A stretch of 38,021 bases of DNA from an uncultured Candidatus Saccharibacteria bacterium (GTDB lineage: Bacteria; Patescibacteriota; Minisyncoccia; UBA6257; UBA9933), in contig CAZLYJ010000001.1 in the NCBI GenBank assembly GCA_964563845.1, positions 1-38,021 on the forward strand. Direction: 5' to 3'. Shown one piece after another: positions 3,432 through 38,021 of this stretch; position 1 is the stretch's first letter, and every line of letters begins with the position of its first letter. Below the pieces are notes generated by a model. The model ran no database searches. It had not been told where the DNA came from and saw only the letters and a list, made by a program, of their open reading frames with translations. The position numbers were made by a program, and so were the translations under genes.

Positions 3432-3437
3432 ATTTAT

Positions 3438-3543: not shown

Positions 3544-3545
3544 AC

Positions 3546-3573: not shown

Positions 3574-3581
3574 AATATTAT

Positions 3582-3626: not shown

Positions 3627-3657
3627 GCGATCTTATTAAGATTGCTTTTTTTATTTT
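3627..3657 (+). terminator. Rho-independent terminator
   Basis: Stem gcgatctt / aagattgc (8 bp, one G-U pair) with loop att, followed by ttttttt a ttttt. Confidence 0.7.
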
Positions 3658-3703
3658 TAAAAGATGTTTAGTGATAAACAGTTTCTCGGTTAATAATCAC
3701 CGG

Positions 3704-3724
3704 AAGACGCAATAAGCGTCTTTT
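3704..3724 (+). terminator. Second hairpin (weak terminator or attenuator)
   Basis: Stem aagacgc / gcgtctt with loop aataa, followed by only a short T run. Confidence 0.3.
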
Positions 3725-3740
3725 AGAAATAAAAAACAAT

Positions 3741-12457: not shown

Positions 12458-13228
12458 ATGGAAGGAAGAATAATAAAGGTGGCGATAGGCGTACCGACGA
12501 AAGGGACGACTGACGCGCCCGCTTACGACAATCATTTGACGCTTCTGGCGCATTTGGGAAAATTGCAAATCGCCTCGTGGGCGGGAATAAAAGAAATGGA
12601 CGGAGAGTATTTTGATTATCCGGACGGCATTAAATTCAAATTCGCTTTAATGACTTTACCCCGAGTATTCCCCGCATTAGCCAGAGAGAAGATAGCGGAA
12701 GAAGCGAAAGAACAGAATTGCGATTATCTTTTCTTCTTTGACGATGATATGATAATGATGCCGGACATATTTGAAAGATTATTCAAGCACCGGAAAGATA
12801 TTGTCGCGGCTCTGGCCTTTTGCCGATTATATCCGTACAATCCGGTTATCTATAATCTGACGAAAGGATATGACGGAGTGGAGAAAAAAGAATACTATAT
12901 TAACTTGACGGTTAATCGGTATCCGAAAGACCAATTAGTGGAATGCGACGCGGTCGGTTTCGGAGCGGTGCTGATTGATATGAAGCTCTTGGATACAATA
13001 CAGAAGCCGTGGTTTATGACGACAAGCGGGGCTGGTGAAGATATACATTTTTGTCATTTAGCGGGAAAAGCGGGATTCAGGGTATTTATGGATACGGCCA
13101 CCAAGATAGGCCATTTAGGGGAAAGAGAAGTAGTCATCGAGGAAACTTACGAAAAAAATAATACTATTAAAGAAGATCGCCAAAGAGCGGGCGATGAAAA
13201 AAAATATCAAAAAAAGGAAGTATGCTAG
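12458..13228 (+). CDS. GT-A fold glycosyltransferase
   Basis: The N-terminal IKVAIGVPTKG strand and the DxD region YLFFFDDDMIM are typical of family-2-like glycosyltransferases. Confidence 0.65.
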   Translation: MEGRIIKVAIGVPTKGTTDAPAYDNHLTLLAHLGKLQIASWAGIKEMDGEYFDYPDGIKFKFALMTLPRVFPALAREKIAEEAKEQNCDYLFFFDDDMIMMPDIFERLFKHRKDIVAALAFCRLYPYNPVIYNLTKGYDGVEKKEYYINLTVNRYPKDQLVECDAVGFGAVLIDMKLLDTIQKPWFMTTSGAGEDIHFCHLAGKAGFRVFMDTATKIGHLGEREVVIEETYEKNNTIKEDRQRAGDEKKYQKKEVC

Positions 13229-15010: not shown

Positions 15011-15039
15011 ATGATAGAGGAATCTTTGAGACCTGTCAA
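15011..15039 (-). promoter_or_regulatory. Promoter of the antisense HNH gene (TTGACA-17-TATCAT)
   Basis: The minus strand reads ttgaca ggtctcaaagattcctc tatcat. The -10 hexamer is the reverse complement of the ATGATA that starts the plus-strand glycosyltransferase gene at 15011. Confidence 0.55.
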
Positions 15040-15937
15040 GAGAGTAGCGTTTCCGTACGAGTCAAGACTCGGAAGAAATGACGGAAGTCCATTGTATTAT
15101 TCTCATTTAGTCAAACGCACACCAGGATTTGAAATGATCCACTTCACCTCGGAAGACACAGGCGACTTAGATAAGTGGGGACGGTTTGATGCTTGGATTT
15201 GGGTTGACTGGGGAGAAGACGCTCTTAAAGAAATGCTACCCTATACTCCAATGAGCTTAAAAGACAAGCACCCGTCAATCTATATATGTTCCGACACTCA
15301 CTTAGGCCGAGAGTATCGCTTTGAAAAAGCCTTGGAATTTGACTGGGTTTTCTTTAATCAAAAAAGAGCGATGGAAGAATTTACCGCTTTGTTTCCCGAA
15401 AAAAAGGAAAAGGTATTTTGGTTGCCTCACGCGGTTGAACCGCTGGCATACCCCAATAAGCCCGTATCAATCAAAAAGTTTGATATTGGTTTTGTCGGAT
15501 ATGTTTCTTTTCGCAAGAGAGCGGAAATGCTGGATAGGATGTTCAAGGAGTTCCCTAACTTCTTTTACGGACAAAGATTCTCGCGCTGGATATACGGCGA
15601 ACCGGCGGACGGACAAGATACGGCTGATATATTCCGAAAGTCAAAAATTGTTTTCAGTACAGCCGCAGTTGATGATGTTCAAATGCGCACTTTTGAGGCA
15701 TTAGCAACGGGTTCTTTTCTTCTCACGGAATGGGTACCGACACTTGAAGAATTGTTCGAGAATAAAAAACATCTGGTTTGGTACAAGACAATGGATGAAG
15801 CGGTGGAACTGGCGAAATACTATCTGGAGAATGAAATAGAAAGAGAAATGATTGCAACTGCTGGTATGCAGGAAGTGTTAGCGAATCATACATACGAAAA
15901 AAGATTTGAAAAAATATTATCAATTATTAAGATTTAA
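15011..15937 (+). CDS. CgeB-like glycosyltransferase (GT1-type C-terminal domain)
   Basis: RTFEALATGSFLLTEW...LVWYKTMDEAVELAKYYLENEIEREMIATAGMQEVLANHTYEKRF matches the CgeB / Glyco_trans_1_2 pattern. Confidence 0.7.
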   Translation: MIEESLRPVKRVAFPYESRLGRNDGSPLYYSHLVKRTPGFEMIHFTSEDTGDLDKWGRFDAWIWVDWGEDALKEMLPYTPMSLKDKHPSIYICSDTHLGREYRFEKALEFDWVFFNQKRAMEEFTALFPEKKEKVFWLPHAVEPLAYPNKPVSIKKFDIGFVGYVSFRKRAEMLDRMFKEFPNFFYGQRFSRWIYGEPADGQDTADIFRKSKIVFSTAAVDDVQMRTFEALATGSFLLTEWVPTLEELFENKKHLVWYKTMDEAVELAKYYLENEIEREMIATAGMQEVLANHTYEKRFEKILSIIKI

Positions 15938-17523: not shown

Positions 17524-19530
17524 ATGTCTTTATTCCGAACACCGGCTATCACTCCCAAACGGCTGGATACCTTTACTGTCAGCGGACTTGTCGGCGGTTG
17601 GAACTCCAGCGATAACCAAGACGAACTGAATGACAGGGAAATATCTGACGGACGGAATACGGAAATTACTTCTTCTTCCACAATCGCGCCTCGAGGCGGA
17701 TATGTCAATCGGGGCAATTTCTTGGGGGGTACTACAAAAATACTGGGACTTCACGAATGGATCAAAAGTGACGGAACGCGCAAGCTGATAGCGGTATACG
17801 ATACGGATGCGTATGTGCTGTCTACGGACTGGGAACCGGCCGGAATGGTTTTAACCAGCAACAAACCTGCCGAATTTGCCAATTATCTGGACAGGGCGTA
17901 TATGACGAATAAGGGGAGTACAGCCGCCGGACATTTGGGGGTTATGTACTATGACGGTACAAACTGGACGCAAGTAACGGGTTTTCCCATAGTAGGGGCA
18001 ACAGCATCGGACATTTGCGCGGGGTTGTGCGTGTATAAAGAAAGACTGATCGGGTGGAATACGACCAATTTCCCCAAGAGGGTGTATTATTCCAACGCTA
18101 ACGCGCATACGATAGGGACGCTGAATTATTTTGATATGGATGAGGCGGTAACGGCGTGCGTGCCTTTCTTCGACTACTTGCTGATTTTCACGGAAAACCA
18201 TTTATACAAAATATCTTCATTTATTTTTACCGGTGTCGCTTTTGAGCCGAATAATATTCAGCCCTTGGCGACCAAGAATGGATGCGCGGCAATGCGGACA
18301 ATTAAGCAGATAGGCAGCGCGGTATACTATCTCTCGGCGGACGGATTATATAAAACTGACGGATTCGTGGCAATAAATTTAACGAATAATAAGATAGAGA
18401 ATTTTTTGAATGATACGATGAGCAAGGCGGTGGTGGCGACATCTAATGCGGGAATAAATGGAACAGATTATCACCTTTGCATTTCCACAGACGGAACAAC
18501 CCAGAACGAGATTATCAGCTATGATACGGCGCGCAACATCTTCCAGCCGAGAAAAACAGGCAAAGCATTTTCCTGTTTCGCGCAATTCAAAGAAAGCGGA
18601 GCAGTAAAACTGTATGGAGGTTCGGACGCGGAAGGTCATATTTATCAACTTGCCTCAACAAACATTTATGATGATACGGCGGATGTGAGCCAAGCGGCCG
18701 GACAAGATACGGATGACGCGGTGGACGGAGGAGCAACGACTAAAAGACAGGCGCAGGGTTTTCAGCTTACGACGGCGGGGGAAGTAACCGGTGTCGCGCT
18801 GTATATGAAAAAGAACGCGGGAACAACCGCAGAATTGGCCATACGGATTGAAACAGATAACGCAGGAGTACCCTCGGGGACGGCCGTAACCAATGGAACG
18901 ACAACGCTATCGGCTTTCACGACAACGACCTATCGGTACAAGTACGCCACCTTTTCCACTCCGCCCATATTGAACGCGAGTACGACTTATTGGCTGGTGG
19001 TACAACATACAACAGAGGGAAGCGGAACAAGTCAGTATTATTGGGGATCGGACGACTCAAGCCCCGGATATGCTACCTACAACGCCGCCTCTTACGCCAG
19101 CAGTGCTTGGACGGCAGATACGAGCAAAGACCAGTTGTTTCGGATTTACACTAAAAGCGCCTATGAAAAGTATTTTATAACAAAAGGATATTCTTTGGGA
19201 AGCCCACAATATAAAAAGATTGTGAAAAGAGTATTTTGCGAATTAGACGCTTCAGGAAACTATAATATAGCAATAGGGTTGAATACCGACCAGTACACGA
19301 CATTTACCGAGATGACGCAGGATTTATCCGGCAATTCGCCGATACGCGGATCAACCCTTACAAGAGGAAATTTCACCAGAGGAACAATGTCTAAAATAAG
19401 TACGGTGTTAAAATTCTCGGATGTGAGGGGGCGAAGAATTAAATTAAGGGTGTATAATAATATGGCAGGCAATACTTTTAATTTTCATTCGGCGGTTTTA
19501 AATTATCGGCTAAAGCAAATTCCAAGATAA
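17524..19530 (+). CDS. Putative tail nozzle / tubular-B-like structural protein
   Basis: 668 aa with repeated beta-strand motifs (YMTNKG, VYYSN, VYYLSADGLYKTDG) that suggest a propeller. The C-terminal third is Thr-rich. The call is positional. Confidence 0.4.
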   Translation: MSLFRTPAITPKRLDTFTVSGLVGGWNSSDNQDELNDREISDGRNTEITSSSTIAPRGGYVNRGNFLGGTTKILGLHEWIKSDGTRKLIAVYDTDAYVLSTDWEPAGMVLTSNKPAEFANYLDRAYMTNKGSTAAGHLGVMYYDGTNWTQVTGFPIVGATASDICAGLCVYKERLIGWNTTNFPKRVYYSNANAHTIGTLNYFDMDEAVTACVPFFDYLLIFTENHLYKISSFIFTGVAFEPNNIQPLATKNGCAAMRTIKQIGSAVYYLSADGLYKTDGFVAINLTNNKIENFLNDTMSKAVVATSNAGINGTDYHLCISTDGTTQNEIISYDTARNIFQPRKTGKAFSCFAQFKESGAVKLYGGSDAEGHIYQLASTNIYDDTADVSQAAGQDTDDAVDGGATTKRQAQGFQLTTAGEVTGVALYMKKNAGTTAELAIRIETDNAGVPSGTAVTNGTTTLSAFTTTTYRYKYATFSTPPILNASTTYWLVVQHTTEGSGTSQYYWGSDDSSPGYATYNAASYASSAWTADTSKDQLFRIYTKSAYEKYFITKGYSLGSPQYKKIVKRVFCELDASGNYNIAIGLNTDQYTTFTEMTQDLSGNSPIRGSTLTRGNFTRGTMSKISTVLKFSDVRGRRIKLRVYNNMAGNTFNFHSAVLNYRLKQIPR

Positions 19531-19559: not shown

Positions 19560-20072
19560 GTGTCACAAATCACTTTACCAAATGTCATCGCGTCAGGCGA
19601 TGCGGACAATCCGACAAGAGATATGGCGAATTGGACAACCATTCGCGACATTATCAACGGCAATTTGGATAATACGAATATAAATGCCAGTGCGGCTATT
19701 GTAGATTCTAAGCTCTCTGTTCCCAATCGTATAAAACAAACTCAACGACAAGGAGGGAGCGCAACCGACTGGAATACAACAGGTACGACAACCAGAGATG
19801 TTACAAATCCTATCCTTCAATGCGGAACAATTACTATGACAAGCGGAGAATCGGGAACAGCTCCATACACAGCCTCGGTAACCGTTACTTTTCCCACAGC
19901 GTATACAAATAAACCGATTGTTGTTGCTTCACAAACTGAGATATCCGCGACATTGACTATTGGAGTTATGACCGGATCGATAACCACAACTTCGTTTCAA
20001 ATTACAGTCAACGCTTCTGCTGCCGGATATGTGGCTGGAGCGGTTGTTAATTGGATTGCTCTTGGGACATAA
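19560..20072 (+). CDS. Fibre/spike protein with C-terminal H-type-lectin-like domain
   Basis: GTG start. The C-terminus reads VTVTFPTAYTNKPIVVAS...TTTSFQITVNAS...AVVNWIALGT. Confidence 0.5.
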   Translation: MSQITLPNVIASGDADNPTRDMANWTTIRDIINGNLDNTNINASAAIVDSKLSVPNRIKQTQRQGGSATDWNTTGTTTRDVTNPILQCGTITMTSGESGTAPYTASVTVTFPTAYTNKPIVVASQTEISATLTIGVMTGSITTTSFQITVNASAAGYVAGAVVNWIALGT

Positions 20073-23280: not shown

Positions 23281-23988
23281 ATGATCAAGAATAAGAAAAT
23301 TTTAACCGCCAAAGGTCAAGCGAATATGGCCTTTATTAAGGCTTTGTATAAAGAGCGGGGCGGATACAAACCAACCAAGAATGAAATGCGGAAATTTGAA
23401 TTTATGAATGTAAAAGATGTGATGAGTTTAATCCTCGGAAAAGGGGCGGTAAAACAACTGATTAACCAGCCCGAAGCCCAAATAAAGCAACCAGACCCCC
23501 TGCAAGGCCCTACAATCAATCCTGAAGCGCCTATCGCGCCTGCTCCTATCGTGCCTGCTCCCATTCCCGACCAAGTAGCCCAACTTCTTCAACCGGCGCA
23601 ACCCGTTCCGCCAACTTTTGACCAAAGCGGACTATTCAACGAAGCCGATGTAGCGGCGCAAGGGGAAGCGGAATACAGCCCGTATTTCTCTAACGCACTG
23701 GCTGATCTGGTAAAAGGATATGGACGGAAAGGCCAAGATTTAAAATTTGGACAAGGCCAACAAACCCAAGGCCAAATCAGCGATTATCTCAACCGCGGTT
23801 TATCAAGAAGCGGAGGATTTTTAGGAGCGCAACAGCAACTCGGGCAACAGCAAGGACTGGCTACGCAGGATTTACTGGATGAAGAAGGAAGAAAGAAAAA
23901 AGAACTGGCGCAACAGAAAGCGGGCGCTTTGCAAGATTACAGGCAGACAGCCTATCAAAATGCTTATTCCAAATATTTAAACCGATAA
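23281..23988 (+). CDS. Putative internal virion (core) protein, Pro/Gln-rich
   Basis: 235 aa. It is the first of three consecutive genes of increasing size, a layout like the internal core proteins of T7-like podoviruses. Confidence 0.4.
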   Translation: MIKNKKILTAKGQANMAFIKALYKERGGYKPTKNEMRKFEFMNVKDVMSLILGKGAVKQLINQPEAQIKQPDPLQGPTINPEAPIAPAPIVPAPIPDQVAQLLQPAQPVPPTFDQSGLFNEADVAAQGEAEYSPYFSNALADLVKGYGRKGQDLKFGQGQQTQGQISDYLNRGLSRSGGFLGAQQQLGQQQGLATQDLLDEEGRKKKELAQQKAGALQDYRQTAYQNAYSKYLNR

Positions 23989-23993
23989 ATTTT

Positions 23994-25151
23994 ATGCCTA
24001 CACAATACGCAACGGTTTTCAATCCCATTACGGGACAAAGAAAAAAAGTCATTGCGGGCGACCCCAATGCTTTCAAGGGGGGATTTCAATTAGAAACAAA
24101 ATCTAATAAATTTTCAACGCCGATCACGCCAAATGTGCCAAATGCGCAACCGGCCGAAACTGATTATCGCACAGCGTACGGCTTGCCCGCTTTGGAACAA
24201 AAGGCAACACAACGAGAAACGGATTATCAAAGCGCGGGAAGCGGACAACAAGCCTTTATTGACGCTTTGAAAAAAGCTCTTTTGGGCGGAGATACGCAAA
24301 CGCAAGGATTTCAAGCGGAAAAAGAAAGATTGATTAAACAGCAATACGCGCAACCAACGGATGAAAGACAGCGATTGATTGAAGCGGGCATTGACAATCC
24401 TTTTGAAAGACAGAAAAGAATATCCGAAGCATTGGGGACGACTGAATCGGCCTTGTCTGCCGTGTCTTCCCGTTTGGCCGGACTGGGTAAAAGCCGAGAG
24501 GATTTACTGCAACAGGGAGTAAAAGGATATGAAGCGGATTTAGCGACAAAAGATGAATCAAGACAGGCGGCGGCCAATGCCCTAAAAGAGGCGATGGGCT
24601 TGGTGACCAAGGCGCAAGCCGAAGAAAAAATGAATAAACAAAAACAAGAGGAGGCGCTTTTAGCCAGACAAGAAAAAGCGCAAGAAGCGATTCAAAAGAG
24701 AAAAGAAAAACTGGAAGATGAGGCGCGCGGTTATAAACAGAAAATTGATTTTGAGAAGTTTAAAGCGGGATTGAAACCGAAAAAAGGAACAAGCGGAGGA
24801 GGGAGCATTATAACAGGCGGCACGAAGTTTACCGCTCAAGAAAAAAGAAAGCTGGAACAGGCCGGCCTTACAGACGCGCCGCGGCAAAAACAACTGGATT
24901 TTATTTATGGCAAGGGAACGGAAACAACGCCCAAGCCGACCACTTTGGGAGCGTATGAACCGCTTAAAGGGCAATACGAAGACGCCTATCTTAAATGGCT
25001 GGCCGCTCAATCCACTTTGCAAGGAATGCAATTAGATCCGGCTAATCCCAATGTGCGAAAACAGTGGGAAGCAAGCACGCAGAAAAAATCATCTTCTAAT
25101 TCTTCATCATCCGGTATTCCGTCTTTTGAAGACTTATTAAATCTGCCTTAA
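23994..25151 (+). CDS. Putative internal virion (core) protein, coiled-coil
   Basis: 385 aa with long Lys/Glu/Gln helical segments. The call is positional. Confidence 0.4.
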   Translation: MPTQYATVFNPITGQRKKVIAGDPNAFKGGFQLETKSNKFSTPITPNVPNAQPAETDYRTAYGLPALEQKATQRETDYQSAGSGQQAFIDALKKALLGGDTQTQGFQAEKERLIKQQYAQPTDERQRLIEAGIDNPFERQKRISEALGTTESALSAVSSRLAGLGKSREDLLQQGVKGYEADLATKDESRQAAANALKEAMGLVTKAQAEEKMNKQKQEEALLARQEKAQEAIQKRKEKLEDEARGYKQKIDFEKFKAGLKPKKGTSGGGSIITGGTKFTAQEKRKLEQAGLTDAPRQKQLDFIYGKGTETTPKPTTLGAYEPLKGQYEDAYLKWLAAQSTLQGMQLDPANPNVRKQWEASTQKKSSSNSSSSGIPSFEDLLNLP

Positions 25152-25155
25152 TATT

Positions 25156-28100
25156 ATGCCGTCTATTTTACAGATGATTGCCAATGCCGGTAAAAAGATA
25201 GGGAAAATTCCCGCGCAAAACGCGGCGACTCTCTTGAATATTGCCAAAAAGAATGTAAAACAAACGGGCAAAGGAATAATGGCGGTGTCAAAAGTCGGAC
25301 AAAAAATTCTTCCTTTTGGAAAAACCGTCTTAATTGAAGCGCCAGCCAGAGCGGCCGCTTCAATCGCTTTAGATACAAAAAAACAGCCATTATTGATTCC
25401 TCAATCGCCGGCGGAAAAATTGTTTTTTGGAAAAGAACCAGTAGAGGCATTAAGCAAAAGAATCAAAGAGTCTCCTCAAAAAGCTGAAGCATTGGGTATC
25501 CCAAAAAAAACCGCTCAATTTGTCGGCCCGATGGCGGTTGCCGGATTTACCGTACTTGATCTATTGCCGGCGGGCGGAGCAAAGAAGAAAGCGGTGCAAA
25601 TCGTTAAGCCGTCAATTGCCAAAAATATTATTGAACAAGGAGCGAAACAAGTGGAAAGAATCGCGCCAAAAACCGCCCAAGCGATGAGAGCGATTGATGT
25701 ATCTAAGAAAGCCTTTTCTTCTTTAAGTATTGCAAGAAGCAGTAAAAACGATTTCTTGGATTTAGCGACAAAATCGTATATACCTAAAAGAAAAATAATT
25801 CACGACAAAATTATTTCCTCTGCGATAAAGAACTCCCCAAGCGTTGAACATCCAACCATTACGATCGTTACGGGGCATTCTGCTTCTGGAAAAAGCAGAT
25901 TCGCTAAAGATGTACTGGAAAAAGAGCGTCCAAGCGCGGTTGTTATTGACCCCGATAAAATTAAAATGCAACTTCCGGAAAAAGACAAAATATATCTTCA
26001 CGATGAATCAGGAGATATTGCGACACGATTATTCAAAGAAGCAATGGGGGGTAAAATGGGGGGTAAAAAGGATATTATTTTTATTGGAAATATTAAAAAT
26101 AATGAAAAATATAAAACAATGCTTGACAATTTTCAAAAAGCAGGCTATAATATGGATATTAGAGCCGTACAAGTAGATAGACGCACCGCTTTACAGCGTG
26201 GAATAAAAAGATCGCTCAAACAACCGGTACCGGCAATAGAAGTTGCAAAAAGTTATGACAATTATAAACAAGGACTGGAATTATTAAAAAAGTATTCTAA
26301 TATAAAAGTATATGAAGGAACAAAAGATTTTACAAAACAAGTTGGAAGAACAGAATTCCAAACAACCCAAATACGGAAGTCTGGAATGGGAGGATTCAGT
26401 TTGGGAGGACGCGGCTTACCGAGGGACTCTTCCGGAACAATTGAATCAACCTTCTTCCAAGACGGATCAAAAATAAAAGATGGTTCTTTAAGTATTGGTA
26501 AAACCATAAAAGAACGGGGATTTTTTAAAACTGTAACGGAATCCAAACAGACACCTTCAGAGCTAAAAGGACTGCTTAAAGATACGGGCGCGGGAATTTC
26601 CACAAAGTCTAAATTTTACGATGTGGCTACCGATAAAGCGGCATTAGACGCGGCCAAAACGAAAATCAATCAAAATATTGATGAAGCGTTTTCTTTTGTC
26701 ATATCGGAAAAAAATCCCTCCAAAGAACACATTGCCACCGGTATTGAATTGATGAAAAGATTTTCCGGCGAAGGCAACCAAATAAGGGCGGCTGATATTT
26801 TTGAACATTTAGCCGAACAATTGACTAAATCCGGTCAAACAATTCAGGCCGCTTCCCTTTGGAATAAACTTACTCCTGAGGGACAAATATTAACGCTAAC
26901 CAGAAAAATTAACAGTTATAATAAAAAAATACAAGATACGGGCGGGCTTTTTGGCTTGGGCAAAAAACTTCCCGGATTATCCAAAGAACAAATCAGAGGA
27001 TTATTGGATGAAGCCAGAAAAATAGCTGAAATTCCCGATGAATTAGCCAGAAAAAAAGCGGAGTATTTTTTTCAAGATAAACTCGCCTCATTTATTCCTT
27101 CATCGGGTTTAAAAAAAGCAGTAACGGTTTGGAAAGCCGGTTTATTGACGGGATTAAAAACGAGCGGACTAAATATCGGATCAAATATTTCTCATAGTAC
27201 CCTTTTAGAACGGGTTAAAGATATTCCAAGCGCGGGAATTGATATTATTGCCTCATTATTTACCAAAAAACGAACCTTGCCGGCATTTGCCGGAGGATAC
27301 AGAAAAGGACTTAAAGAAGGAGCCGAAAAAGGCTGGGAATATGTCGCTACCGGATTTGATGAACGAAATATCGGAGCAAAACTTGATTTGCAAAAAGTTA
27401 ATTTTTCCAAAGCCCCCATTGGCCGATTTCTTCAAAAATATACCAATACTGTCTTTCGCGTTATTGGCGGAGAAGATCAGCCGTTCTTTTATGGTTCTTT
27501 AAGCCGCGCAATTTTTTCGCAAGTCAAAGCTAATGGAATGAATCAGGGTTTAAAGGGTACAACCTTGAAAGAATTTATAGAAAACGGCATTAAAAATCCT
27601 TCCGAAGATATACTGAAAACCGCGTTAAAAGAAGCAGAAATAGCCGTCTTTGCCAATAAAACAAAATTGGGACAATTAGGCCGCGGTATTCAAAAAATGG
27701 GCGGCGGTCTTGGAGAGTTTGCCGTTCCTTTTTCTCGCACGCCATCAGCCGTAGCAATGCAAGTAATCAATTATAGTCCGATTGGATTCATAAAAACCGT
27801 GGCGGAAAATATCGGTAAGGGCAAATTTAATCAAAGAGCTTTTTCACAAGGAATAGGACGCGCCATTACCGGCACGACTATTTTAGGCTTAGGCGCCCAT
27901 TTAATGAATAAAAACAAAATAACGCTTAATTATCCGACGACCGATAGAGAACGGCGGCAATGGGAATTAGAAGGGAAACAAGCCAATAGCATTAAAATCG
28001 GCAATAAGTGGCGCTCCGTCGCTTCTTTTGGGCCAGCCGGATTCGCTTTGTTAATCGGCGGACATATTCAAAAAGCCTATAATGATACAGGAAGCGCAGT

Positions 28101-28839
28101 TAAAGGAATGGGTCAAATTATCGGCGGCGCGAGCAAATCTTTTACTGAGCAAACATTTTTAAAAGGAATAAATCAAATAACGGAAATATTAAATGATCCG
28201 GTGCGCAATGGTCCGGCTTGGTTAAAGAATTTTGTCGCTTCGTTTATCCCCACACTTTCAAAAGATATAGCCGTTTCTCTTGATCCTTATCAAAGAAAAA
28301 CAGAAAATATTCCGGAAGCGGCGGCGGCGCGTATTCCTATTTTACGAACTTCCGTATTGGAAAATAAACCGAAAATAGATGTGCTGGGCGAACCGCTAAA
28401 AAGACAACAAAGCGCGATTGCTTCGCTTCTTGATCCGACCAGACCGTCAACTATCCAGTCAACTTCCGTTATCAATGAATTAAATCGTTTAACGGAAGCG
28501 GGTTATAAAGTAACTCCGACTCAATTTGGCGAAGAAAAAAAATTTGATATTTTAACCGATGAACAAAATATTAACTTGCAAATGGCGGCGGGACAAAACT
28601 TAAATAAGGTTTTGGGAAAAATAATAATCAGTGATTGGTGGCAAACCGCCGATGATGAAATGAAAGAAAAAGCGATAAATAAATACACGGAAGACGCAAG
28701 ATTTTACGCACGAATGGGAATGCTGAATTTTCTCTTGTCAGATATAAAAGACCAAAATCAAAAAATATTGAAATTAAAAGAACTCATCAAAGACGGATTC
28801 GTCAACAAAGAAATGTATAATAAATTTATGCTAAAATAA
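25156..28839 (+). CDS. Giant internal virion / ejection protein with embedded zeta-toxin-like P-loop kinase domain
   Basis: 1227 aa. Residues about 205-390 (nt about 25770-26325) read PTITIVTGHSASGKSRFAKDVL...AVVIDPDKIKMQLPE...IIFIGNIK...KAGYNMDIRAVQVDRRTALQRGIKR. This matches the zeta/PezT-family pattern of a Walker A, then IDxD..r..xP, and later GY.v.l..v.v...a..R...R. Confidence 0.6.
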   Translation: MPSILQMIANAGKKIGKIPAQNAATLLNIAKKNVKQTGKGIMAVSKVGQKILPFGKTVLIEAPARAAASIALDTKKQPLLIPQSPAEKLFFGKEPVEALSKRIKESPQKAEALGIPKKTAQFVGPMAVAGFTVLDLLPAGGAKKKAVQIVKPSIAKNIIEQGAKQVERIAPKTAQAMRAIDVSKKAFSSLSIARSSKNDFLDLATKSYIPKRKIIHDKIISSAIKNSPSVEHPTITIVTGHSASGKSRFAKDVLEKERPSAVVIDPDKIKMQLPEKDKIYLHDESGDIATRLFKEAMGGKMGGKKDIIFIGNIKNNEKYKTMLDNFQKAGYNMDIRAVQVDRRTALQRGIKRSLKQPVPAIEVAKSYDNYKQGLELLKKYSNIKVYEGTKDFTKQVGRTEFQTTQIRKSGMGGFSLGGRGLPRDSSGTIESTFFQDGSKIKDGSLSIGKTIKERGFFKTVTESKQTPSELKGLLKDTGAGISTKSKFYDVATDKAALDAAKTKINQNIDEAFSFVISEKNPSKEHIATGIELMKRFSGEGNQIRAADIFEHLAEQLTKSGQTIQAASLWNKLTPEGQILTLTRKINSYNKKIQDTGGLFGLGKKLPGLSKEQIRGLLDEARKIAEIPDELARKKAEYFFQDKLASFIPSSGLKKAVTVWKAGLLTGLKTSGLNIGSNISHSTLLERVKDIPSAGIDIIASLFTKKRTLPAFAGGYRKGLKEGAEKGWEYVATGFDERNIGAKLDLQKVNFSKAPIGRFLQKYTNTVFRVIGGEDQPFFYGSLSRAIFSQVKANGMNQGLKGTTLKEFIENGIKNPSEDILKTALKEAEIAVFANKTKLGQLGRGIQKMGGGLGEFAVPFSRTPSAVAMQVINYSPIGFIKTVAENIGKGKFNQRAFSQGIGRAITGTTILGLGAHLMNKNKITLNYPTTDRERRQWELEGKQANSIKIGNKWRSVASFGPAGFALLIGGHIQKAYNDTGSAVKGMGQIIGGASKSFTEQTFLKGINQITEILNDPVRNGPAWLKNFVASFIPTLSKDIAVSLDPYQRKTENIPEAAAARIPILRTSVLENKPKIDVLGEPLKRQQSAIASLLDPTRPSTIQSTSVINELNRLTEAGYKVTPTQFGEEKKFDILTDEQNINLQMAAGQNLNKVLGKIIISDWWQTADDEMKEKAINKYTEDARFYARMGMLNFLLSDIKDQNQKILKLKELIKDGFVNKEMYNKFMLK
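26123..26151 (+). promoter_or_regulatory. Perfect consensus promoter hexamers (TTGACA-17-TATAAT) inside the giant gene
   Basis: ttgaca attttcaaaaagcaggc tataat, in the sense orientation, coding LDNFQKAGYN. Confidence 0.4.
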
Positions 28840-28996: not shown

Positions 28997-29290
28997 ATGG
29001 AAAATCAACCGATAGATAAAACTCAAATCATCATTCACGGCATTTTGGCCGCCATAGGCGGAATAGTCCGAGTATTGGCGGAAAATAAGAAATATTCAGT
29101 CTGGTATTATTTGTCGCAGACGGTTATTTCTTCTTTCTCCGGTGTGATTGTCGGTCTGCTGTTAAAAGAATTTATGAACAGCGAATATTTGATAATGTCA
29201 TTTAGCGGAATGGCGGGATATTCCTCATCCGGTATTTTGCACATACTCTCCGTAAAATTGCAGAATTATTTAAAAGATAAACCTTTGTGA
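28997..29290 (+). CDS. Putative holin (multi-pass membrane protein)
   Basis: 97 aa with three hydrophobic segments (GILAAIGGIVRVL, VISSFSGVIVGLLL, FSGMAGYSSSGILHIL) and a charged C-terminus. Confidence 0.45.
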   Translation: MENQPIDKTQIIIHGILAAIGGIVRVLAENKKYSVWYYLSQTVISSFSGVIVGLLLKEFMNSEYLIMSFSGMAGYSSSGILHILSVKLQNYLKDKPL

Positions 29291-29978: not shown

Positions 29979-30250
29979 AAAGAAAAGGTCGCCATAGAAT
30001 TAAAAAATATTATTGGTTAATCAAACATTTATTATCATTGATAATTAAAAATAATATTATGTATTCTAAAATCAAAGAATTAGTGTCATCGGTTCGTTTT
30101 CTTCAACTGGTGATCGTAGCCATTTTGCAGATTGTCGCCAAAGAAGTGCCGGATAGCAAAAGCATTATTGACGCGGTATCGGCTTTATTGGTCGGCTCGG
30201 TAGCGATAGGAACAATTGATCGCGCTTCAACGAAAATAGGCGGGAAGTAA
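29975..30250 (+). CDS. Hypothetical protein (91 aa, or 63 aa from the ATG at 30059)
   Basis: The ATG at 29975 overlaps the rusA stop as ATGA. The alternative start at 30059 has the common aaaataatattATG context. Confidence 0.45.
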   Translation: MKRKGRHRIKKYYWLIKHLLSLIIKNNIMYSKIKELVSSVRFLQLVIVAILQIVAKEVPDSKSIIDAVSALLVGSVAIGTIDRASTKIGGK

Positions 30251-30266
30251 AAACAAAATAACCGCT

Positions 30267-30410
30267 CGGTATCGCGGATATCTTTAGCGATATCGGGACT
30301 TTAAGACCACCTAATCACTGGCTATACGGGAAAACATTAAGGACTGGGAATATACTCGGGCCTGAAATGACAAAGCCGCTATGATGGCGGTACAATGGCC
30401 CGTATATTTA
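30267..30410 (+). other. Structured non-coding segment (candidate ncRNA or leader)
   Basis: There is no ORF longer than 13 codons on the plus strand. A 9-bp hairpin forms from cggtatcgc / gcgatatcg (30267-30295). A long helix forms from aatatac(tc)gggcc / ggcccgtatatt (about 30347-30410) and encloses a ccgc/gcgg hairpin. An upstream tatacggg (30323-30330) can pair with the same cccgtata. The segment is visibly more GC-rich than its flanks. Confidence 0.4.
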
Positions 30411-30427
30411 TCTTCTGTATAAGTTAG

Positions 30428-30468
30428 ACGCATTTTGTACACATCTTGGACACATCTCTAAAATGCGT
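30428..30468 (+). promoter_or_regulatory. Operator-like inverted repeat overlapping a candidate promoter
   Basis: The arms acgcatttt (30428-30436) and aaaatgcgt (30460-30468) flank two direct repeats acacatct (30439-30446 and 30450-30457). The candidate promoter is ttgtac-18-taaaat (30435-30464). Confidence 0.45.
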
Positions 30469-30546
30469 ACAAAAAACCATAAAAAAAGGACATTAAATGC
30501 ATAGATTTACTGTTCTTTGATAAAATAACCAACAAAAGGAGGTGAA

Positions 30547-30699
30547 ATGAAAACTTTAAAATGCGAGAAGTGCGGCGGTTTCACCGAACATCTTTTTAAC
30601 GGCAGTTGCGAAATCTGCAAATGGTGTCTGAAAATTTATCAATTTTCAGATGAGGAAATTTTAAATGAGATAAGAAAGCGAGGGTACAACAATGAATAA
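30547..30699 (+). CDS. 50-aa zinc-ribbon protein (not in the ORF track)
   Basis: A strong SD aaggaggtga lies immediately upstream of the ATG. Translation: MKTLKCEKCGGFTEHLFNGSCEICKWCLKIYQFSDEEILNEIRKRGYNNE. Confidence 0.55.
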   Translation: MKTLKCEKCGGFTEHLFNGSCEICKWCLKIYQFSDEEILNEIRKRGYNNE

Positions 30700-30973
30700 G
30701 TCATTCATTGAACACAAAGACGAGGTAAGCTTGGAAGAAGTCAACCAAATGCTGGAAGACTTGGATTCTCTGCTTTACGAAGTGGAAAGATTTAATGAAG
30801 TCCTATCGGAAAAGATTATCAAAAGACACCCGATCTTCTGCTCATTTATTCGCGCTCTCTTAATTTCCAACTGCCACGCCACAAAAGCGACCATTCAAAT
30901 CCGGCACATCTTGGAAAAAACGCTGGACGGTTATTTAGACAAGAGTGATGACAACTCATCGGCTCATTCATAG
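30692..30973 (+). CDS. Hypothetical protein (93 aa)
   Basis: Track ORF. It overlaps the previous gene by 8 nt. Confidence 0.5.
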   Translation: MNKSFIEHKDEVSLEEVNQMLEDLDSLLYEVERFNEVLSEKIIKRHPIFCSFIRALLISNCHATKATIQIRHILEKTLDGYLDKSDDNSSAHS

Positions 30974-30984
30974 GAGGGATAACA

Positions 30985-31179
30985 ATGTTAAAAGGACACT
31001 GCCTGAAAAAAGGAATATTGATTGCTGATAGGAAGTTAATAGACTTTTGCTTAAAAGTTGAGTGCAAATTCTTGCGCTGGAAAATCTGGCGGGTGGAAAG
31101 AAACCTGCGCCGATTGGGCCGCATACAAGATTTAAAGGAGAACAGCGATGACAACAATGGAAAGGTTAGAGTTAGATAA
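30985..31179 (+). CDS. Hypothetical basic protein (64 aa)
   Basis: Track ORF with an SD ggaggg 7 nt upstream. Confidence 0.45.
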   Translation: MLKGHCLKKGILIADRKLIDFCLKVECKFLRWKIWRVERNLRRLGRIQDLKENSDDNNGKVRVR

Positions 31180-31342
31180 ATGCAAGGGAGGTTGCGGGCG
31201 TATCAAAAAGCATAGTGTTTGGATTTTTATGTCTGAATATCAGAAAGTCTTGATCGTAAAGTATTACGATGTGTCTTACAAGCTTAGCTTTCTATGCGAT
31301 GATTGCCGAAAAAAGATATTGGCTGGCGAACCGATTGAATAA
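31148..31342 (+). CDS. Zinc-ribbon protein (64 aa)
   Basis: CKGGC...CDDC motif. An SD aaggag lies upstream. Confidence 0.45.
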   Translation: MTTMERLELDKCKGGCGRIKKHSVWIFMSEYQKVLIVKYYDVSYKLSFLCDDCRKKILAGEPIE

Positions 31343-31358
31343 CGCCTCCTTAAACTGA

Positions 31359-31396
31359 AAAGCGGCCTCTTTTTCTTTTAGAAGCCGCTTTATTTT
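31359..31396. terminator. Bidirectional hairpin terminator at the convergence of the two arms
   Basis: Stem aaagcggc / gccgcttt (8 bp, with 3 more pairs after one mismatch). T-rich tracts follow on both strands. Confidence 0.6.
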
Positions 31397-31401
31397 CCGC
31401 G

Positions 31402-31623
31402 TTAAAACAATCTTTTATTGCAAAGCGTGCAATATCCTCTGCCTTCCCAACCCACCGGATAATCAATATCCGCTCCGCAACACTGGCTTTTAAATCCAAA
31501 ATATATTAAAAATTTGAGCCAAAGATTATCTTTACGGAGGCGACCGTGAATAAAGCGGGTTTTTAACATTCTAATAGCTAAATTGCCTAAAAAAAGAATT
31601 TGAGATATTTTTTCTTTTTTCAT
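31402..31623 (-). CDS. Hypothetical Cys-containing protein (73 aa)
   Basis: Track ORF with C-terminal CCGAD...CTLC. It is the last gene of the minus arm. Confidence 0.5.
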   Translation of the reverse strand: MKKEKISQILFLGNLAIRMLKTRFIHGRLRKDNLWLKFLIYFGFKSQCCGADIDYPVGWEGRGYCTLCNKRLF

Positions 31624-31776
31624 AAATTTATATGAATTTAAATAATATTTTAACTATTGCAATGTCCGTGAGTATTGAAAATAAAATACAAAAAATAATC
31701 ATAGACACGGTTGGAAATCCAATATCTTTTTTTTCAATATTTTGCCTTTCCCAAAGAAATAAAGTAATTGAAGTTA

Positions 31777-32076
31777 TCATAAAACTATCCCTTTGCTTTC
31801 AGCTATTTTTTTAATAATATCCCGCTCATTGTTGCGAATGCGCTTATAGCTCCGCCATTTATCCATTGATTTGTCAGAGTCTTGACTTTCAATCTCGTCC
31901 CATTTTTCTGTGAGTGTATTCATTAAAAGCAGTAGGAGTTTTTTGGTGATGTCTTTTTCAAAAGAAGTGAAAGCCAAATCCAGTTGATTCTCAAAAACAC
32001 TTTCATCAATATTACCATCGTGGTCTATGCCATATTGAAGCGTTATAATCAATCCTTTGATTATTTCTTTTTTCAT
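31777..32076 (-). CDS. Hypothetical acidic protein (99 aa)
   Basis: Track ORF. Confidence 0.5.
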   Translation of the reverse strand: MKKEIIKGLIITLQYGIDHDGNIDESVFENQLDLAFTSFEKDITKKLLLLLMNTLTEKWDEIESQDSDKSMDKWRSYKRIRNNERDIIKKIAESKGIVL

Positions 32077-32935: not shown

Positions 32936-33349
32936 TTATTTATATTTTTTCTTATTCCAAGATATTATTCCTTTTTTAAACTGTGTATGTATCATTTTTT
33001 TCATTACTTCAGGATGTCCATTTTTCGTATGTTGTCCGTGTGTGGCGAAAAGTATAAGATTTTCAATCCGATTGTCTTTTGGATCGCCGTTGATATGATG
33101 TACTACTTCTTCTTTTGTAAGATAGCGTCCGATTTTCTTTTCCATTATAAGGCGATGTTCGGCAATATGTCCTTGTTTATTGGAAAAAGGATGTTCGGGT
33201 TTAAAAATATACCAATATCCGCTTCTTTCAATTTTTCCTTTAAATCGCGGCCTTGGATTATGTCCGCGTTTAAATTTGGCTTTTTTCCTTAATTTATTTA
33301 TTGCGGGTATTTTTTCTTTACATCCGCATTTGCAATATATGTATTTCAT
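32936..33349 (-). CDS. Free-standing HNH homing endonuclease (HNH_3-like)
   Basis: GHIAEHRLIMEKKIGRYLTKEEVVHHINGDPKDNRIENLILFATHGQH. The track ORF is trimmed to the ATG at 33349 because the GTG at 33367 abuts, and the next two codons are, the -10 hexamer. Confidence 0.8.
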   Translation of the reverse strand: MKYIYCKCGCKEKIPAINKLRKKAKFKRGHNPRPRFKGKIERSGYWYIFKPEHPFSNKQGHIAEHRLIMEKKIGRYLTKEEVVHHINGDPKDNRIENLILFATHGQHTKNGHPEVMKKMIHTQFKKGIISWNKKKYK

Positions 33350-33358
33350 AATGTAGTT

Positions 33359-33386
33359 ATTATACACTATGAAATATATTTGTCAA
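33359..33386 (-). promoter_or_regulatory. Perfect consensus promoter (TTGACA-16-TATAAT), 9 nt from the HNH ATG
   Basis: The minus strand reads ttgaca aatatatttcatagtg tataat aactacatt ATG. Confidence 0.65.
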
Positions 33387-33618: not shown

Positions 33619-34242
33619 TTATTTGAAGTTTCTTTTTTCCAAATTGAATCGCTGAATTATAATTTTCGGTAAATATATCAAAGGTGTCGCCTTGCCATAA
33701 CCAATCCATCCTTTTTTTTGTATATGCGGATGATTATTCATAAAATATTTTCTACCGCAATGATATTTTTTAATCTTTAATCCTCTATTATACCCCATAT
33801 CCATTTGAGAAGTATGCAGATGATGATGTTCTGAATCGGTTAATAATCGTAGATTTTCAATTCTATTATCATCTCTAATCCCGTTAATATGATGTACTTG
33901 CTCCCATTTTTCCAGTTGCCGTTTAATGTGTTTTTCCATTACATAGCGATGTTCAAGAATTTTTTTACTTGTTTGCGGATGATTCAATACTTTATATCCT
34001 GTTGCTTTATGCAACCAACCCTTTCCTTTTCCTTTATTCGGATTTAGTGTTGTTCGTTTTCGTCCAGTCATTTTACTACTTACTGTTTTCCAATAACATT
34101 TACGCGAGCAGTATTTTGATTGATTCCAGTCTTTTGAAGATTGAAATGTTGATCCAAAATAAATATTTTCACAAACTTCACAATTCTTTTGTTTTGTCTT
34201 GTCTTGATTGAGTTTTTTATTTCTAATTCGTTTCTTCAACAT
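33619..34242 (-). CDS. Free-standing HNH homing endonuclease (HNH_3-like)
   Basis: [49 protein letters not shown], with an N-terminal CEVC...CSRKC. The ATG at 34242 is preferred over the TTG at 34266. Confidence 0.8.
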
Positions 34243-34750
34243 ATATGGGTAATTTTTTAATGCCAAACCTTATGGCACTAATTATATTATACCCATAATA
34301 CCAGTCAAGGCGATTCTTGCCAGAATAGCGTTTATTCATTCGATCCCGCACCGTGCAAACTCCCAAACCGGCAATTTTAATCTTTGTGCCGAATTTATAA
34401 TCATTTGAAGCGCAAGTATTCTCATTTTTTTGATATAATTTCCAAATATTTTGTCCATTGGCTGATATTTCCGGAGTATCATCTGTTTGTTTTGGATCGG
34501 ATGTATAGGCTGTTATTGTCGCCCAAGCGGTATATGTCTTTTTCGCTTCAAATGGACAAACGACTTCTTTCAATCCGCAGATAATCTCATCGTCTTCCGT
34601 TCTCGCTTCCGCCGACTCGGGAGGAAGAACCTCCTCAATGCTTGTCGTAAGAGATTTTTCCCCGCGGCCGGCAGAAGCCATAACGGAAAATCCTATAATG
34701 AATAATGTTGATAAGACGGCAAATGGAATAACCTGATACTTATTTTTCAT
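34223..34750 (-). CDS. Secreted/anchored 3D-domain cell-wall hydrolase
   Basis: The N-terminal hydrophobic anchor is [21 protein letters not shown]. It is followed by [23 protein letters not shown]...[23 protein letters not shown]...LDWYYG, a 3D-domain pattern. Confidence 0.75.
34281..34308 (-). promoter_or_regulatory. Near-consensus promoter (TTGACT-16-TATAAT) for the HNH gene, inside the 3' end of the 3D-domain gene
   Basis: The minus strand reads ttgact ggtattatgggtataa tataat, 38 nt upstream of the ATG at 34242. Confidence 0.55.
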
Positions 34751-37929: not shown

Positions 37930-38021
37930 TTAATTGAAGTCAACGTATAAATTTTTATGAAGGCGAATTAAAGATTGATAATGCTTGGTATCTGTTCGGC
38001 CTTTGATTATCAGATCGTCAA
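37930..38021 (-). CDS. 3' part of the junction-spanning 55-aa ORF (see 1..130)
   Basis: TAA at 37932..37930. The sequence from 37968 onward duplicates positions 1-54. Confidence 0.5.
   Translation of the reverse strand, partial: DDLIIKGRTDTKHYQSLIRLHKNLYVDFN
37968..38021. repeat. Terminal direct repeat, right copy (identical to 1-54)
   Basis: Verbatim 54-nt match to the window start. Confidence 0.97.

Follow-up and report, generated by a model that had tools for sequence, protein, structure and literature searches.

A zeta-toxin-family kinase domain in the predicted gp16-class ejection protein of a groundwater phage: a candidate cargo for delivery with the DNA

The forward strand of the window (the whole stretch of DNA analysed, 38,021 nucleotides) carries a run of phage virion genes in the order TerL (position 4653), a 577-aa ORF (6197), MCP (9371), tail proteins (16734 and 17524), a fibre-like gene (22135), three genes for proteins of 235, 385 and 1,227 residues, and a holin gene (Table 1). 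The 577-aa ORF, at the portal position, has no family match. The 1227-aa gene follows the tail genes and closes the virion structural block, of which it is the largest member; next comes the holin gene, whose counterpart on an identical contig is matched by Pfam Phage_holin_3_3. Replication genes lie on the opposite strand and the genome is not T7-like overall. A megablast comparison of 20 kb of the window with cultured phages gave no match, and neither tRNA genes nor Rfam families were found. An ORF-poor stretch at 30250-31777 holds short, weak repeats only. The source phage is represented by metagenome contigs only, and 11 groundwater contigs encode the identical 1227-aa protein. Judged from its sequence and surroundings, this protein probably serves a podovirus-like groundwater phage of ~38 kb as its large ejection (internal virion) protein.

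Table 1. Genes, domains and active-site features of the locus, in window coordinates
Feature	Position (nt)	Strand	Basis or annotation
235-aa Q/P/A-rich protein	23281..23988	+	Possible small ejection/core protein, by position only
385-aa coiled-coil, low-complexity protein	23994..25151	+	Possible middle ejection protein, by position only
Gene for 1227-aa multi-domain protein	25156..28839	+	ORF list and translation
N-terminal region, residues 1-200	25156..25755	+	phmmer, hydropathy scan
Zeta-toxin-family P-loop kinase domain, residues 225-381 (Pfam)	25828..26298	+	PF06414, profile, AF2, Foldseek
Walker A / P-loop GHSASGKS, residues 240-247	25873..25896	+	Alignment to 1gvn_B
D265-P-D267 of VIDPD motif	25948..25956	+	Aligned to zeta VIDND
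G311-N-I-K-N315, zeta GTXR(T) position (G117-T121)	26086..26100	+	HMM alignments to 1gvn_B
R352, zeta Arg158 equivalent	26209..26211	+	Aligned to R158; invariant in alignment A3
Gly-rich linker, residues 401-451	26356..26508	+	Composition (20% Gly), between kinase and C-terminal module
C-terminal module, residues 452-1227	26509..28836	+	Predicted gp16-class internal virion (ejection) protein family
Holin gene	28997..29290	+	PHROG 6384/785, E about 1e-12; structural block ends here

The original prediction read the last three genes before the holin as the internal core proteins of a T7-like phage. This stands for the largest, which is of the gp16 class by homology, and is unconfirmed for the two upstream genes. 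Neither the 235-aa nor the 385-aa protein matches a Pfam, PHROG or NCBIfam family; the former is unlike its positional counterpart in the orthologous locus L002, and the latter is unlike the LysM protein at its position there, so the reading of the three as core proteins comes down to position and composition. A weak 'SU10_adaptor' label of an L002 neighbour is not transferable to the window. Searches of the neighbouring ORFs with Pfam, PHROG and NCBIfam detected no epsilon- or PezA-like antitoxin gene.

The 1227-aa protein consists of a conserved N-terminal region, a kinase cassette, a Gly-rich linker and a predicted gp16-class C-terminal module. Residues 1-200 are basic (net charge +22) and include the hydrophobicity peak of the entire protein (residues 122-140, FVGPMAVAGFTVLDLLPAG, by hydropathy scan). 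In a phmmer search, at least 15 out of 150 representatives of the family matched this region at their N termini, and parts of it are common to many members. The linker is probably disordered, with pLDDT below 50 at residues 404-415 of the AlphaFold2 model. Compared with the orthologue P0005, conservation is highest in the kinase (51% identity), followed by the C-terminal module (42%), the linker (32%) and the N-terminal region (28%). The kinase is the sole recognisable catalytic domain; neither residues 1-200 nor residues 452-1227 carry an enzymatic annotation.

T7 gp16, or 'internal virion protein D', belongs to the ejectosome, carries a lytic transglycosylase at its N terminus and is, to our knowledge, the only member of its class with solved ejectosome structures. 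Assignment to this class of the giant protein, read at the outset as a probable ejected virion protein, is supported by three comparisons of its C-terminal module: a match to PHROG 6651 'internal virion protein' (E=4e-14), tblastn matches to podophage 'internal virion protein D' genes (E=1e-11), and an hhalign alignment of the family profile with CRP-403 gp34 (probability 99.1%, E=1.9e-18, 485 columns), the product of a gene flanked by tail-tube genes and the tail fibre gene in an Autographiviridae genome. Phages in culture that bear the module include Roseobacter phage CRP-403 and Pelagibacter phage HTVC041P. T7 gp16 itself aligned at a probability of 1.1% (hhalign), with no detectable homology, and the family profile matched no chain in the PDB. 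The family is represented by 1,401 cluster representatives scoring below 1e-30, nearly all of which align to the C-terminal module only. By homology, then, the C-terminal ~775 residues are a predicted structural, gp16-class carrier of cargo. Several module-bearing cluster representatives are binned with CPR/Patescibacteria genomes.

Zeta and PezT toxins (PF06414; PDB 1gvn, 3q8x and 2p5t) are the UDP-GlcNAc 3'-kinases of epsilon/zeta toxin-antitoxin systems. A kinase of this type had been proposed at residues 205-390 of the 1227-aa ORF (nucleotides 25768-26325); the ORF, the motifs and the coordinates are present in the window, and Pfam, profile comparison with the PDB and the predicted fold agree on the family. 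Pfam Zeta_toxin (PF06414) matches the whole ORF with E=1.4e-15 (57.7 bits; gathering cut-off 22.3) and the isolated domain with E=4.9e-17. Word-indexed searches returned no homologues for the domain alone and three for the full protein; homologues were recovered by exhaustive search and a profile query, and all 25 matches of the domain-profile database search carry PF06414. Scanning IMG/VR with the full-length protein as query gave no close relative. NCBIfam gave sub-threshold matches only, and PADLOC weak, generic P-loop matches only, so the domain does not correspond to any known defence protein. Among stand-alone kinases the closest is P0154, which has LemA, TPM phosphatase and methylase genes as neighbours, an uninformative context.

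Searched against the PDB, the profile of the 25 sequences matches zeta (1gvn, 1.5e-26) and PezT (2p5t, 5.3e-22) significantly and well ahead of PNK-type kinases, with PSTK at 8e-13, Pnkp1 at 1e-12, T4 PNK at 1e-6, and AvrRxo1, a Xanthomonas type III effector (PDB 4z8q), at 6e-11. A single-sequence AlphaFold prediction of the domain had a pLDDT of 38 and was remade with the 25-sequence alignment, giving an AlphaFold2 model with pLDDT 88 and pTM 0.84 in which the globular kinase fold spans about residues 210-400. Its top 12 Foldseek matches in the PDB are AvrRxo1, zeta and PezT (E 3e-9 to 3e-7; TMq 0.57-0.69). Sequence profile and fold thus confirm the domain as a zeta/PezT-family P-loop kinase.

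The arginines R158 and R171 of zeta are conserved residues of its active site and lid, and D66 is the PezT counterpart of zeta D67. Alignment to 1gvn_B pairs K246 and S247 of the window kinase with zeta K46 and T47. In the 25-sequence alignment (A3), which is too diverse for a pattern scan, every sequence has the G, S, G and K of the Walker A motif. In the segment VVIDPDKIK (residues 262-270), D267 takes the position of zeta Asp67, which acts as a base and removes the proton from the acceptor hydroxyl (PMC6362051). No sequence of A3 departs from D267, and conservation at D265 is 90% or higher. Downstream of these lie KAGYNMD (residues 328-334) and RGIKRS (348-353), the latter containing R352. 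The column of zeta R171 (family consensus gRyVP) is occupied by Gln356 with Lys355 adjacent, and P0005 has an Arg one position earlier. The catalytic residues K246, S247, D267 and R352 are invariant or almost invariant across the 25 homologues rather than missing on alignment, and the kinase is predicted to be catalytically intact. The acceptor-binding motif has diverged further. Within FIGNIKN (residues 309-315), the GTXR(T) position keeps its Gly alone, with Lys in place of Arg and Asn in place of both Thr (GTGRT to GNIKN); Ile310 stands at zeta E116 and Thr290 in the E100 column, and the subfamily consensus at the GTXR position is DGTxKN. In zeta, GTXR binds UDP-GlcNAc (PMC6362051); since this UNAG-binding motif is not conserved, poisoning of peptidoglycan synthesis in the manner of zeta is not established.

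The region upstream of the C-terminal module is an exchangeable cargo slot, occupied here by the kinase. Among 78 relatives scanned, Zeta_toxin occurs in five, ART-PolyVal, RelA_SpoT and DnaJ in two each, and SLT, Transglycosylas, nucleotidyltransferase, HNH and Tpt1 once each; most of the N-terminal regions have no Pfam match. One relative (P0002) combines ART-PolyVal and nucleotidyltransferase on the same C-terminal module. An exchange is found in L025, a close relative of P0005 that has an unrelated segment in place of the kinase cassette, between flanks that are 46-64% identical to those of this kinase-bearing orthologue. Overall, only about 4-6% of carrier homologues carry the kinase. We note that most cargo types require cytoplasmic substrates, such as NAD or NTPs.

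We consider it probable that the zeta/PezT-type kinase is a swappable cargo of a gp16-class ejection protein and is delivered at infection. The 1227-aa protein would form part of the capsid core and leave by way of the tail as infection starts, and the kinase, on its flexible Gly-rich linker, would arrive at the cytoplasmic side. There it could use host ATP, with no need for phage gene expression, and phosphorylate a hydroxyl group of a nucleotide-containing small molecule. Proximity to zeta/PezT in sequence makes a UDP-sugar cell-wall precursor the likeliest acceptor, the phosphorylation of which would, from the first minute, bring the synthesis of peptidoglycan and the growth of the host to a halt; given the altered UNAG-contact motif, the acceptor may be a different one. 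The T7 gp16 database record gives few copies of this class of protein per virion, so any effect would have to come from catalytic turnover.

A different acceptor is the main point of the alternative that survives best. With carrier and delivery unchanged, the kinase may act as AvrRxo1 does, on NAD or a (di)nucleotide, perhaps an immune signal, and would then serve counter-defence and not the poisoning of the wall. AvrRxo1 structures top the Foldseek matches (E=2.9e-9), and the GTXR motif is degenerate, as it is in Mtb Rv0366c (PMC6362051) and in the NAD-phosphorylating AvrRxo1 (PMC5087710). Sister cargoes that use NAD or nucleotides (ART, RelA_SpoT, nucleotidyltransferase and Tpt1) are consistent with it, as are a related phage zeta domain that adjoins NUDIX in a polyvalent protein (L012) and another in a BFVD protein named Anti-CBASS Acb1. 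However, these NUDIX and Acb1 associations belong to other proteins, the profile favours zeta/PezT over AvrRxo1 by about 15 orders of magnitude, and the DGTxKN consensus still resembles the EGTGRT of zeta; we regard this reading as possible but unlikely. More doubtful is the broader proposal that a GN[IV]K subclade of zeta kinases, lacking the canonical GTXR, phosphorylates something different from UDP-GlcNAc, with NAD and immune signalling nucleotides as candidates, and would be the first small-molecule kinase to be delivered by virions as a transcription-independent effector of counter-defence or takeover, the C-terminal module defining a very large cargo-swapping ejectosome family.

A kinase acting on polynucleotides or tRNA ends (PNK, Pnkp1 or PSTK type), arriving with the DNA and mending or modifying RNA or DNA ends against, for example, host anticodon nucleases, would account for the match to PHROG 505 'polynucleotide kinase' (E=6e-12), the profile matches to PSTK, Pnkp1 and T4 PNK, the appearance of C. 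thermocellum PNK in Foldseek (1.7e-6) and the RNA 2'-phosphotransferase (Tpt1) cargo of one relative. It is improbable nonetheless: zeta/PezT is the better match by 10-14 orders of magnitude in profile and about 3 in fold, the closest database homologues (25 of 25) are of the Zeta_toxin family, and the 1227-aa protein showed neither a ligase nor a phosphatase partner domain. We attach very little probability to action late in the producing cell, whether as a lysis aid that weakens the wall or in virion modification, or to an NTPase that assembles or powers the ejectosome. The gene does lie in the late structural block adjoining the holin, and a free, late-made zeta-type kinase needs no antitoxin, which agrees with the result of the antitoxin search, but delivery is the simplest account of fusion to a packaged carrier. 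The NTPase reading has no direct support in the sequence, and the conserved base Asp267 points to phosphotransfer and not to hydrolysis alone. Moreover, a domain carried by so few of its carriers and replaceable, as in L025, cannot be a core motor of assembly or translocation. A decayed or chance P-loop resemblance devoid of enzymatic function, to which the Gln in the R171 column, the Ile at E116 and the altered GTXR might point, is effectively refuted by E-values of 1e-15 to 1e-26, a confident model with the right fold, invariant core catalytic residues and the position of the region at the conservation peak of the protein.

If the kinase enters with the DNA, as in the favoured reading, it would change a pool of host metabolites ahead of all phage gene expression, the possible targets being cell-wall precursors, NAD or a signalling nucleotide. 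Takeover or counter-defence ahead of expression has so far been a computational prediction for polyvalent proteins, and we found no experimental test of such delivery for zeta-type kinases in the literature. The domain is small, soluble-looking and open to catalytic-dead controls (K246A and D267N), which makes the question directly testable. With its very large membership and mostly unannotated slot, the carrier family could serve as a catalogue of injected effectors.

Several known systems share parts of this arrangement. The window kinase resembles zeta/PezT toxins in family by profile, in fold (TM 0.69) and in the Walker A Lys/Ser, catalytic Asp and Arg158 residues. It differs in being an internal cassette of a 1227-aa predicted virion protein and not a stand-alone toxin, and in having GNIKN, Ile for E116, Thr for E100 and Gln for R171. 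AvrRxo1 is likewise a zeta-fold kinase, one that an injection machine delivers to a target cell as an effector; it is the best structural match and also lacks a canonical GTXR. Its similarity in sequence is, however, far weaker than that of zeta/PezT (6e-11 versus 1.5e-26), and its delivery route and target organism are different. AvrRxo1 is a NAD 3'-kinase that has lost the GTXR motif (PMC5087710).

The likeness to T7 gp16 is one of architecture. In each case the gene is the largest of its virion block and lies beyond the tail genes, and both proteins combine an enzymatic domain in the N-terminal half with a long structural C-terminal part; SLT or transglycosylase domains are present in 2/78 relatives of the window protein. 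In contrast, there is no detectable similarity between the two proteins, and the enzyme in the window is an ATP-dependent kinase instead of a peptidoglycan hydrolase. The T7 gp16 enzyme has its substrate outside the cytoplasm, where ATP is absent, whereas the window kinase, being ATP-dependent, would need access to the cytoplasm. The T7 gp16 database record describes the N-terminal enzyme as a peptidoglycan-degrading (endolysin) domain.

A precedent is found in polyvalent proteins. Iyer et al. 2017 (PMC5512222) describe polyvalent proteins and phage MuF fusions that contain zeta-like kinases and are predicted to be injected, and the original prediction was correct in treating toxin domains within large phage proteins as a known theme. 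We found MuF-zeta fusions in IMG/VR (L015) and in cyanophage PSS2 gp030. Polyvalent proteins and the window protein have in common a large protein in a virion context, a swappable enzymatic domain and predicted injection with the DNA, and homologues of the window protein carry ART-PolyVal, nucleotidyltransferase, RelA_SpoT and lysozyme-type domains. Unlike them, the window protein has a single recognisable catalytic domain, which is flanked on both sides by conserved regions (N- and C-terminal) instead of forming the C-terminal tip, and its carrier is a predicted ejection module at the gp16 position in place of MuF; the terms 'gp16' and 'internal virion' are absent from PMC5512222. Since zeta-like kinases in polyvalent and MuF proteins are already described there, the theme itself is known computationally, and the window adds a new carrier variant to it, a gp16-class carrier for a zeta kinase.

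Residues 225-381 of the 1227-aa protein match Pfam Zeta_toxin (PF06414; E=1.4e-15, 57.7 bits vs a gathering score of 22.3), with AAA_33 as the second-best Pfam match (1e-8), a match far beyond chance, and every motif that the original prediction quoted for this part of the protein is present where it was placed. The top PDB-sequence match in phmmer is zeta toxin (1gvn_B), aligning GHSASGKS with zeta GQPGSGKT (K46) and VIDPD with zeta VIDND (D67). A three-sequence profile of the domain detected zeta at 2.9e-10 and yielded 25 matches among 5.8 billion proteins, all containing PF06414 (25/25), the closest being two free-standing proteins (267 and 275 aa; 37-38% identity). With the 25-sequence profile, zeta (1.5e-26) and PezT (5.3e-22) were followed by PSTK (8e-13), Pnkp1 (1e-12), AvrRxo1 (6e-11), gonococcal zeta_1 (3e-10) and T4 PNK (1e-6). 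G240, S244, G245, K246, D267, Y331 and R352 are invariant across this alignment, and S247, D265, H282, E284, V358 and P359 nearly so. AlphaFold2 gave a pLDDT of 38 for the single sequence and 88 (pTM 0.84) with the alignment, and AvrRxo1, zeta and PezT make up the 12 best PDB matches of the model (E 3e-9 to 3e-7, TM <=0.69). On the strength of family profiles, residue conservation and model matches, the domain is assigned to the zeta/PezT-family phosphotransferases, with ATP-binding and catalytic-base residues intact. The original prediction of a zeta/PezT-type P-loop kinase therefore agrees with Pfam, the 25-sequence profile and the model, and the comparison that it proposed with zeta/PezT, AAA_33 and PNK families places zeta/PezT ahead by profile and AvrRxo1, zeta and PezT first by structure.

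The kinase is joined to a C-terminal module (residues 452-1227), of which residues 901-1178 match the PHROGs family phrog_6651, 'internal virion protein'. When residues 28-1227 were searched exhaustively with HMMER, 10,688 cluster representatives scored E<1e-3, of which 1,401 reached E<1e-30; nearly all matches were restricted to the C-terminal ~700-775 residues (37-49% identity), and the homologues have highly variable N-terminal parts and total lengths of 636 to 2257 aa. Among cultured phages, tblastn matched podophage genes annotated as 'internal virion protein D', from phages of Roseobacter, Pelagibacter and Desulfovibrio. One of them, gp34 of CRP-403, a Roseobacter phage of the Autographiviridae, occupies exactly the T7 gene 16 position: it follows the genes for tail tubular proteins A and B, a pair of small genes and a 752-aa gene, and the tail fibre comes next. 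hhalign aligned the family profile with gp34 at 99.1% probability (E=1.9e-18, 485 columns). The same profile gave no hhalign signal against T7 gp16 (probability 1%) and no match in the PDB. By its homology to marine T7-like phages the carrier is classified, from sequence, as a gp16-position ejection-protein module, whose homology to T7 gp16 itself is not demonstrable.

The order of the surrounding genes is consistent with this classification. Positions 1-54 and 37968-38021 carry the same 54-nt direct repeat, which indicates a circularly closed assembly of a complete phage genome with a unit of 37,967 bp; this genome was also found in a Rifle-type groundwater metagenome, on a scaffold of 37,951 bp. 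The original prediction, essentially right as a whole, had taken three consecutive genes for T7-like core proteins; this is supported for the 1227-aa gene by gp16-position homology, whereas the 235- and 385-aa genes are core-protein candidates by position only. Both encode low-complexity, coiled-coil proteins for which no family match was found and which do not resemble the same-position genes of an orthologous locus (L002, ENA contig k141_15552732). At that locus, the gene directly upstream of the one for the kinase-bearing protein (2340-3824) has a 494-aa product containing LysM repeats of the peptidoglycan-binding type; the 385-aa gene in the equivalent position here has no LysM repeats. 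Elsewhere in the genome, the structural block includes, between its capsid and tail genes, three glycosyltransferase genes interspersed with a 188-aa gene without known function; the glycosyltransferases may serve virion glycosylation or host-surface modification. Three HNH endonuclease genes are present. The products of 17524-19530 and 19560-20072 are probably receptor-binding parts. No endolysin was identified adjoining the holin; the Peptidase_M23 protein may be an endolysin or a second peptidoglycan hydrolase.

Features of the phage genome (start only where a single position is given)
Feature	Position	Strand	Remark
Large terminase	4653	+	
577-aa ORF	6197	+	portal position; no family match
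Major capsid protein	9371	+	
HNH endonuclease	10392-10964	+	directly 3' of major capsid gene
GT2-like glycosyltransferase	12458-13228	+	
GT2 + methyltransferase fusion	13222-14451	+	
Glyco_trans_1_2	15011-15937	+	
Tail protein	16734	+	
Tail/virion protein, 668 aa	17524-19530	+	'choice-of-anchor R' domain (NCBIfam E=2.5e-10)
H_lectin, Gp53-like_C	19560-20072	+	labels from identical contig
Fibre-like protein	22135	+	
235-aa protein	23281-23988	+	
385-aa protein	23994-25151	+	
1227-aa protein	25156-28839	+	
Holin	28997	+	
Peptidase_M23, 194 aa	32348-32932	-	early/replication block, >3 kb from holin
HNH_3	32936-33367	-	minus-strand block; Pfam label from identical contig
HNH_3	33619-34266	-	minus-strand block; Pfam label from identical contig

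The region preceding the C-module behaves as an exchangeable slot. Within the top 150 family representatives, a kinase of the window type is found at the same place only in P0005, a full-length orthologue of 1311 aa, and in P0074 (1955 aa), and four others (P0009, P0040, P0062 and P0086) hold a second, divergent zeta-like subtype there, with the P-loop GGTGAGK[ST] and YDxN replacing IDxD, which implies that zeta-type kinases were acquired independently by this carrier. Pfam scans of 78 representatives found Zeta_toxin in five, ART-PolyVal, RelA_SpoT and DnaJ in two each, and SLT, Transglycosylas, Polbeta/NTP_transf_2, HNH and Tpt1/KptA in one each; most remaining N-terminal regions had no Pfam match. 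P0002 joins ART-PolyVal and a nucleotidyltransferase to the same C-module. The clearest direct case of exchange, a natural cargo swap, is a 1184-aa protein (L025; 2905-6459 of MHMF01000036.1, a 41,462-bp scaffold binned with Candidatus Nealsonbacteria), whose C-module and N-terminal region share 64% and 46% identity, respectively, with those of P0005, and in which an unrelated stretch of ~175 residues without kinase signal replaces the kinase cassette of ~260 residues.

Of 12 relatives of the carrier module that are binned with genomes (L025-L036), four fall in MAGs of CPR/Patescibacteria: one of Nealsonbacteria, two of Saccharibacteria and one of Kaiserbacteria. The window phage likewise stems from such groundwater. 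These origins hint at CPR bacteria as hosts of the group, but binning may have produced artefacts, as one further relative lies in a Micrarchaeota bin. The Nealsonbacteria scaffold also has a serine-recombinase-like gene ~1.5 kb downstream of the 1184-aa protein gene.

The kinase identity, its intact catalytic core, the homology of the carrier and the exchange of cargoes are shown by the comparisons above. We consider it reasonably probable that the protein is an ejected carrier delivering a zeta-type kinase to the cytoplasm. The 1227-aa protein would be packaged in the virion and then ejected, the kinase would reach the cytoplasm on its Gly-rich linker, and there it would phosphorylate a nucleotide-containing metabolite with host ATP before phage gene expression. 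Three of the other cargo types, ART, RelA_SpoT and nucleotidyltransferase, likewise depend on cytoplasmic substrates, which supports cytoplasmic exposure of the slot; transglycosylase cargoes, by contrast, would have extracytoplasmic targets. In zeta, the GTXR motif (G117-T121) and E100 bind UDP-GlcNAc (PMC6362051); the window has G311-N-I-K-N315 at the GTXR position, Ile310 for E116, Thr290 in the E100 column and Gln356, adjoined by Lys355, in the R171 column, and the subfamily consensus DGTxKN resembles zeta EGTGRT more closely than this sequence does. Given this altered motif, and since AvrRxo1 lacks the UNAG motif and has a different acceptor, NAD (PMC5087710), and gonococcal zeta_1 phosphorylates several UDP-sugars at the 4'-OH (PMC5923241), the acceptor is not readable from sequence. 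Profile proximity tentatively ranks a UDP-sugar first, at rather less than an even chance, then NAD or another nucleotide, then nucleic-acid ends. A kinase for NAD or a signalling nucleotide is the strongest rival, with AvrRxo1 among the best structural matches and zeta well ahead of it by profile, and we regard it as unlikely. A polynucleotide kinase, as suggested by the PHROGs match of residues 234-390 to phrog_505 ('polynucleotide kinase'), is improbable; PNK and nucleoside-monophosphate kinases fall about three orders of magnitude below the top 12 structural matches. Marginally less probable again is a late or non-delivered role. A dead domain is scarcely credible: in the comparison with P0005, identity is highest in the kinase (51%) and lower in the C-module (42%), the linker (32%) and the N-terminal region (28%), a pattern that speaks for an active enzyme kept by purifying selection.

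Zeta kinases in phage virion proteins are a theme already known from computation: polyvalent proteins, large proteins of phages and conjugative elements with disparate enzymatic domains, were predicted to be co-injected with DNA and already included zeta-like kinases, some of them fused to MuF (Iyer et al. 2017, PMC5512222), and the class is confirmed in PSS2, IMG/VR and BFVD. Cyanophage PSS2 gp030, a 1499-aa 'head morphogenesis' protein, carries a zeta-type domain, and in BFVD such a domain occurs in several large proteins of phages (700-1499 aa), of which four bear the name 'Zeta toxin domain containing protein'; a matching zeta-type fold also occurs there in a 1134-aa phage protein named Anti-CBASS Acb1. 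IMG/VR contigs encode a 713-aa Phage_Mu_F (MuF)-zeta fusion with the kinase at the protein end (L015, 1511-3652), a 5'-truncated protein of >2204 aa with NUDIX, Clp_N and a terminal zeta domain (L012, 1-6615), further large proteins whose zeta domain is C-terminal, and stand-alone forms of 206 aa. The NUDIX, Clp_N, MuF and Acb1-named associations point to nucleotide-directed chemistry. Literature searches turned up no experiments on a zeta kinase carried by virions. The window protein thus represents a new carrier, with predicted substrate and delivery, for this theme in an uncultured groundwater phage. It differs from the known fusions in its gp16-position ejection module, which is absent from all zeta-carrying IMG/VR proteins examined, in its altered acceptor motif, and in the placing of the kinase, a replaceable internal cassette flanked on both sides by conserved regions, N-terminal and C-terminal.
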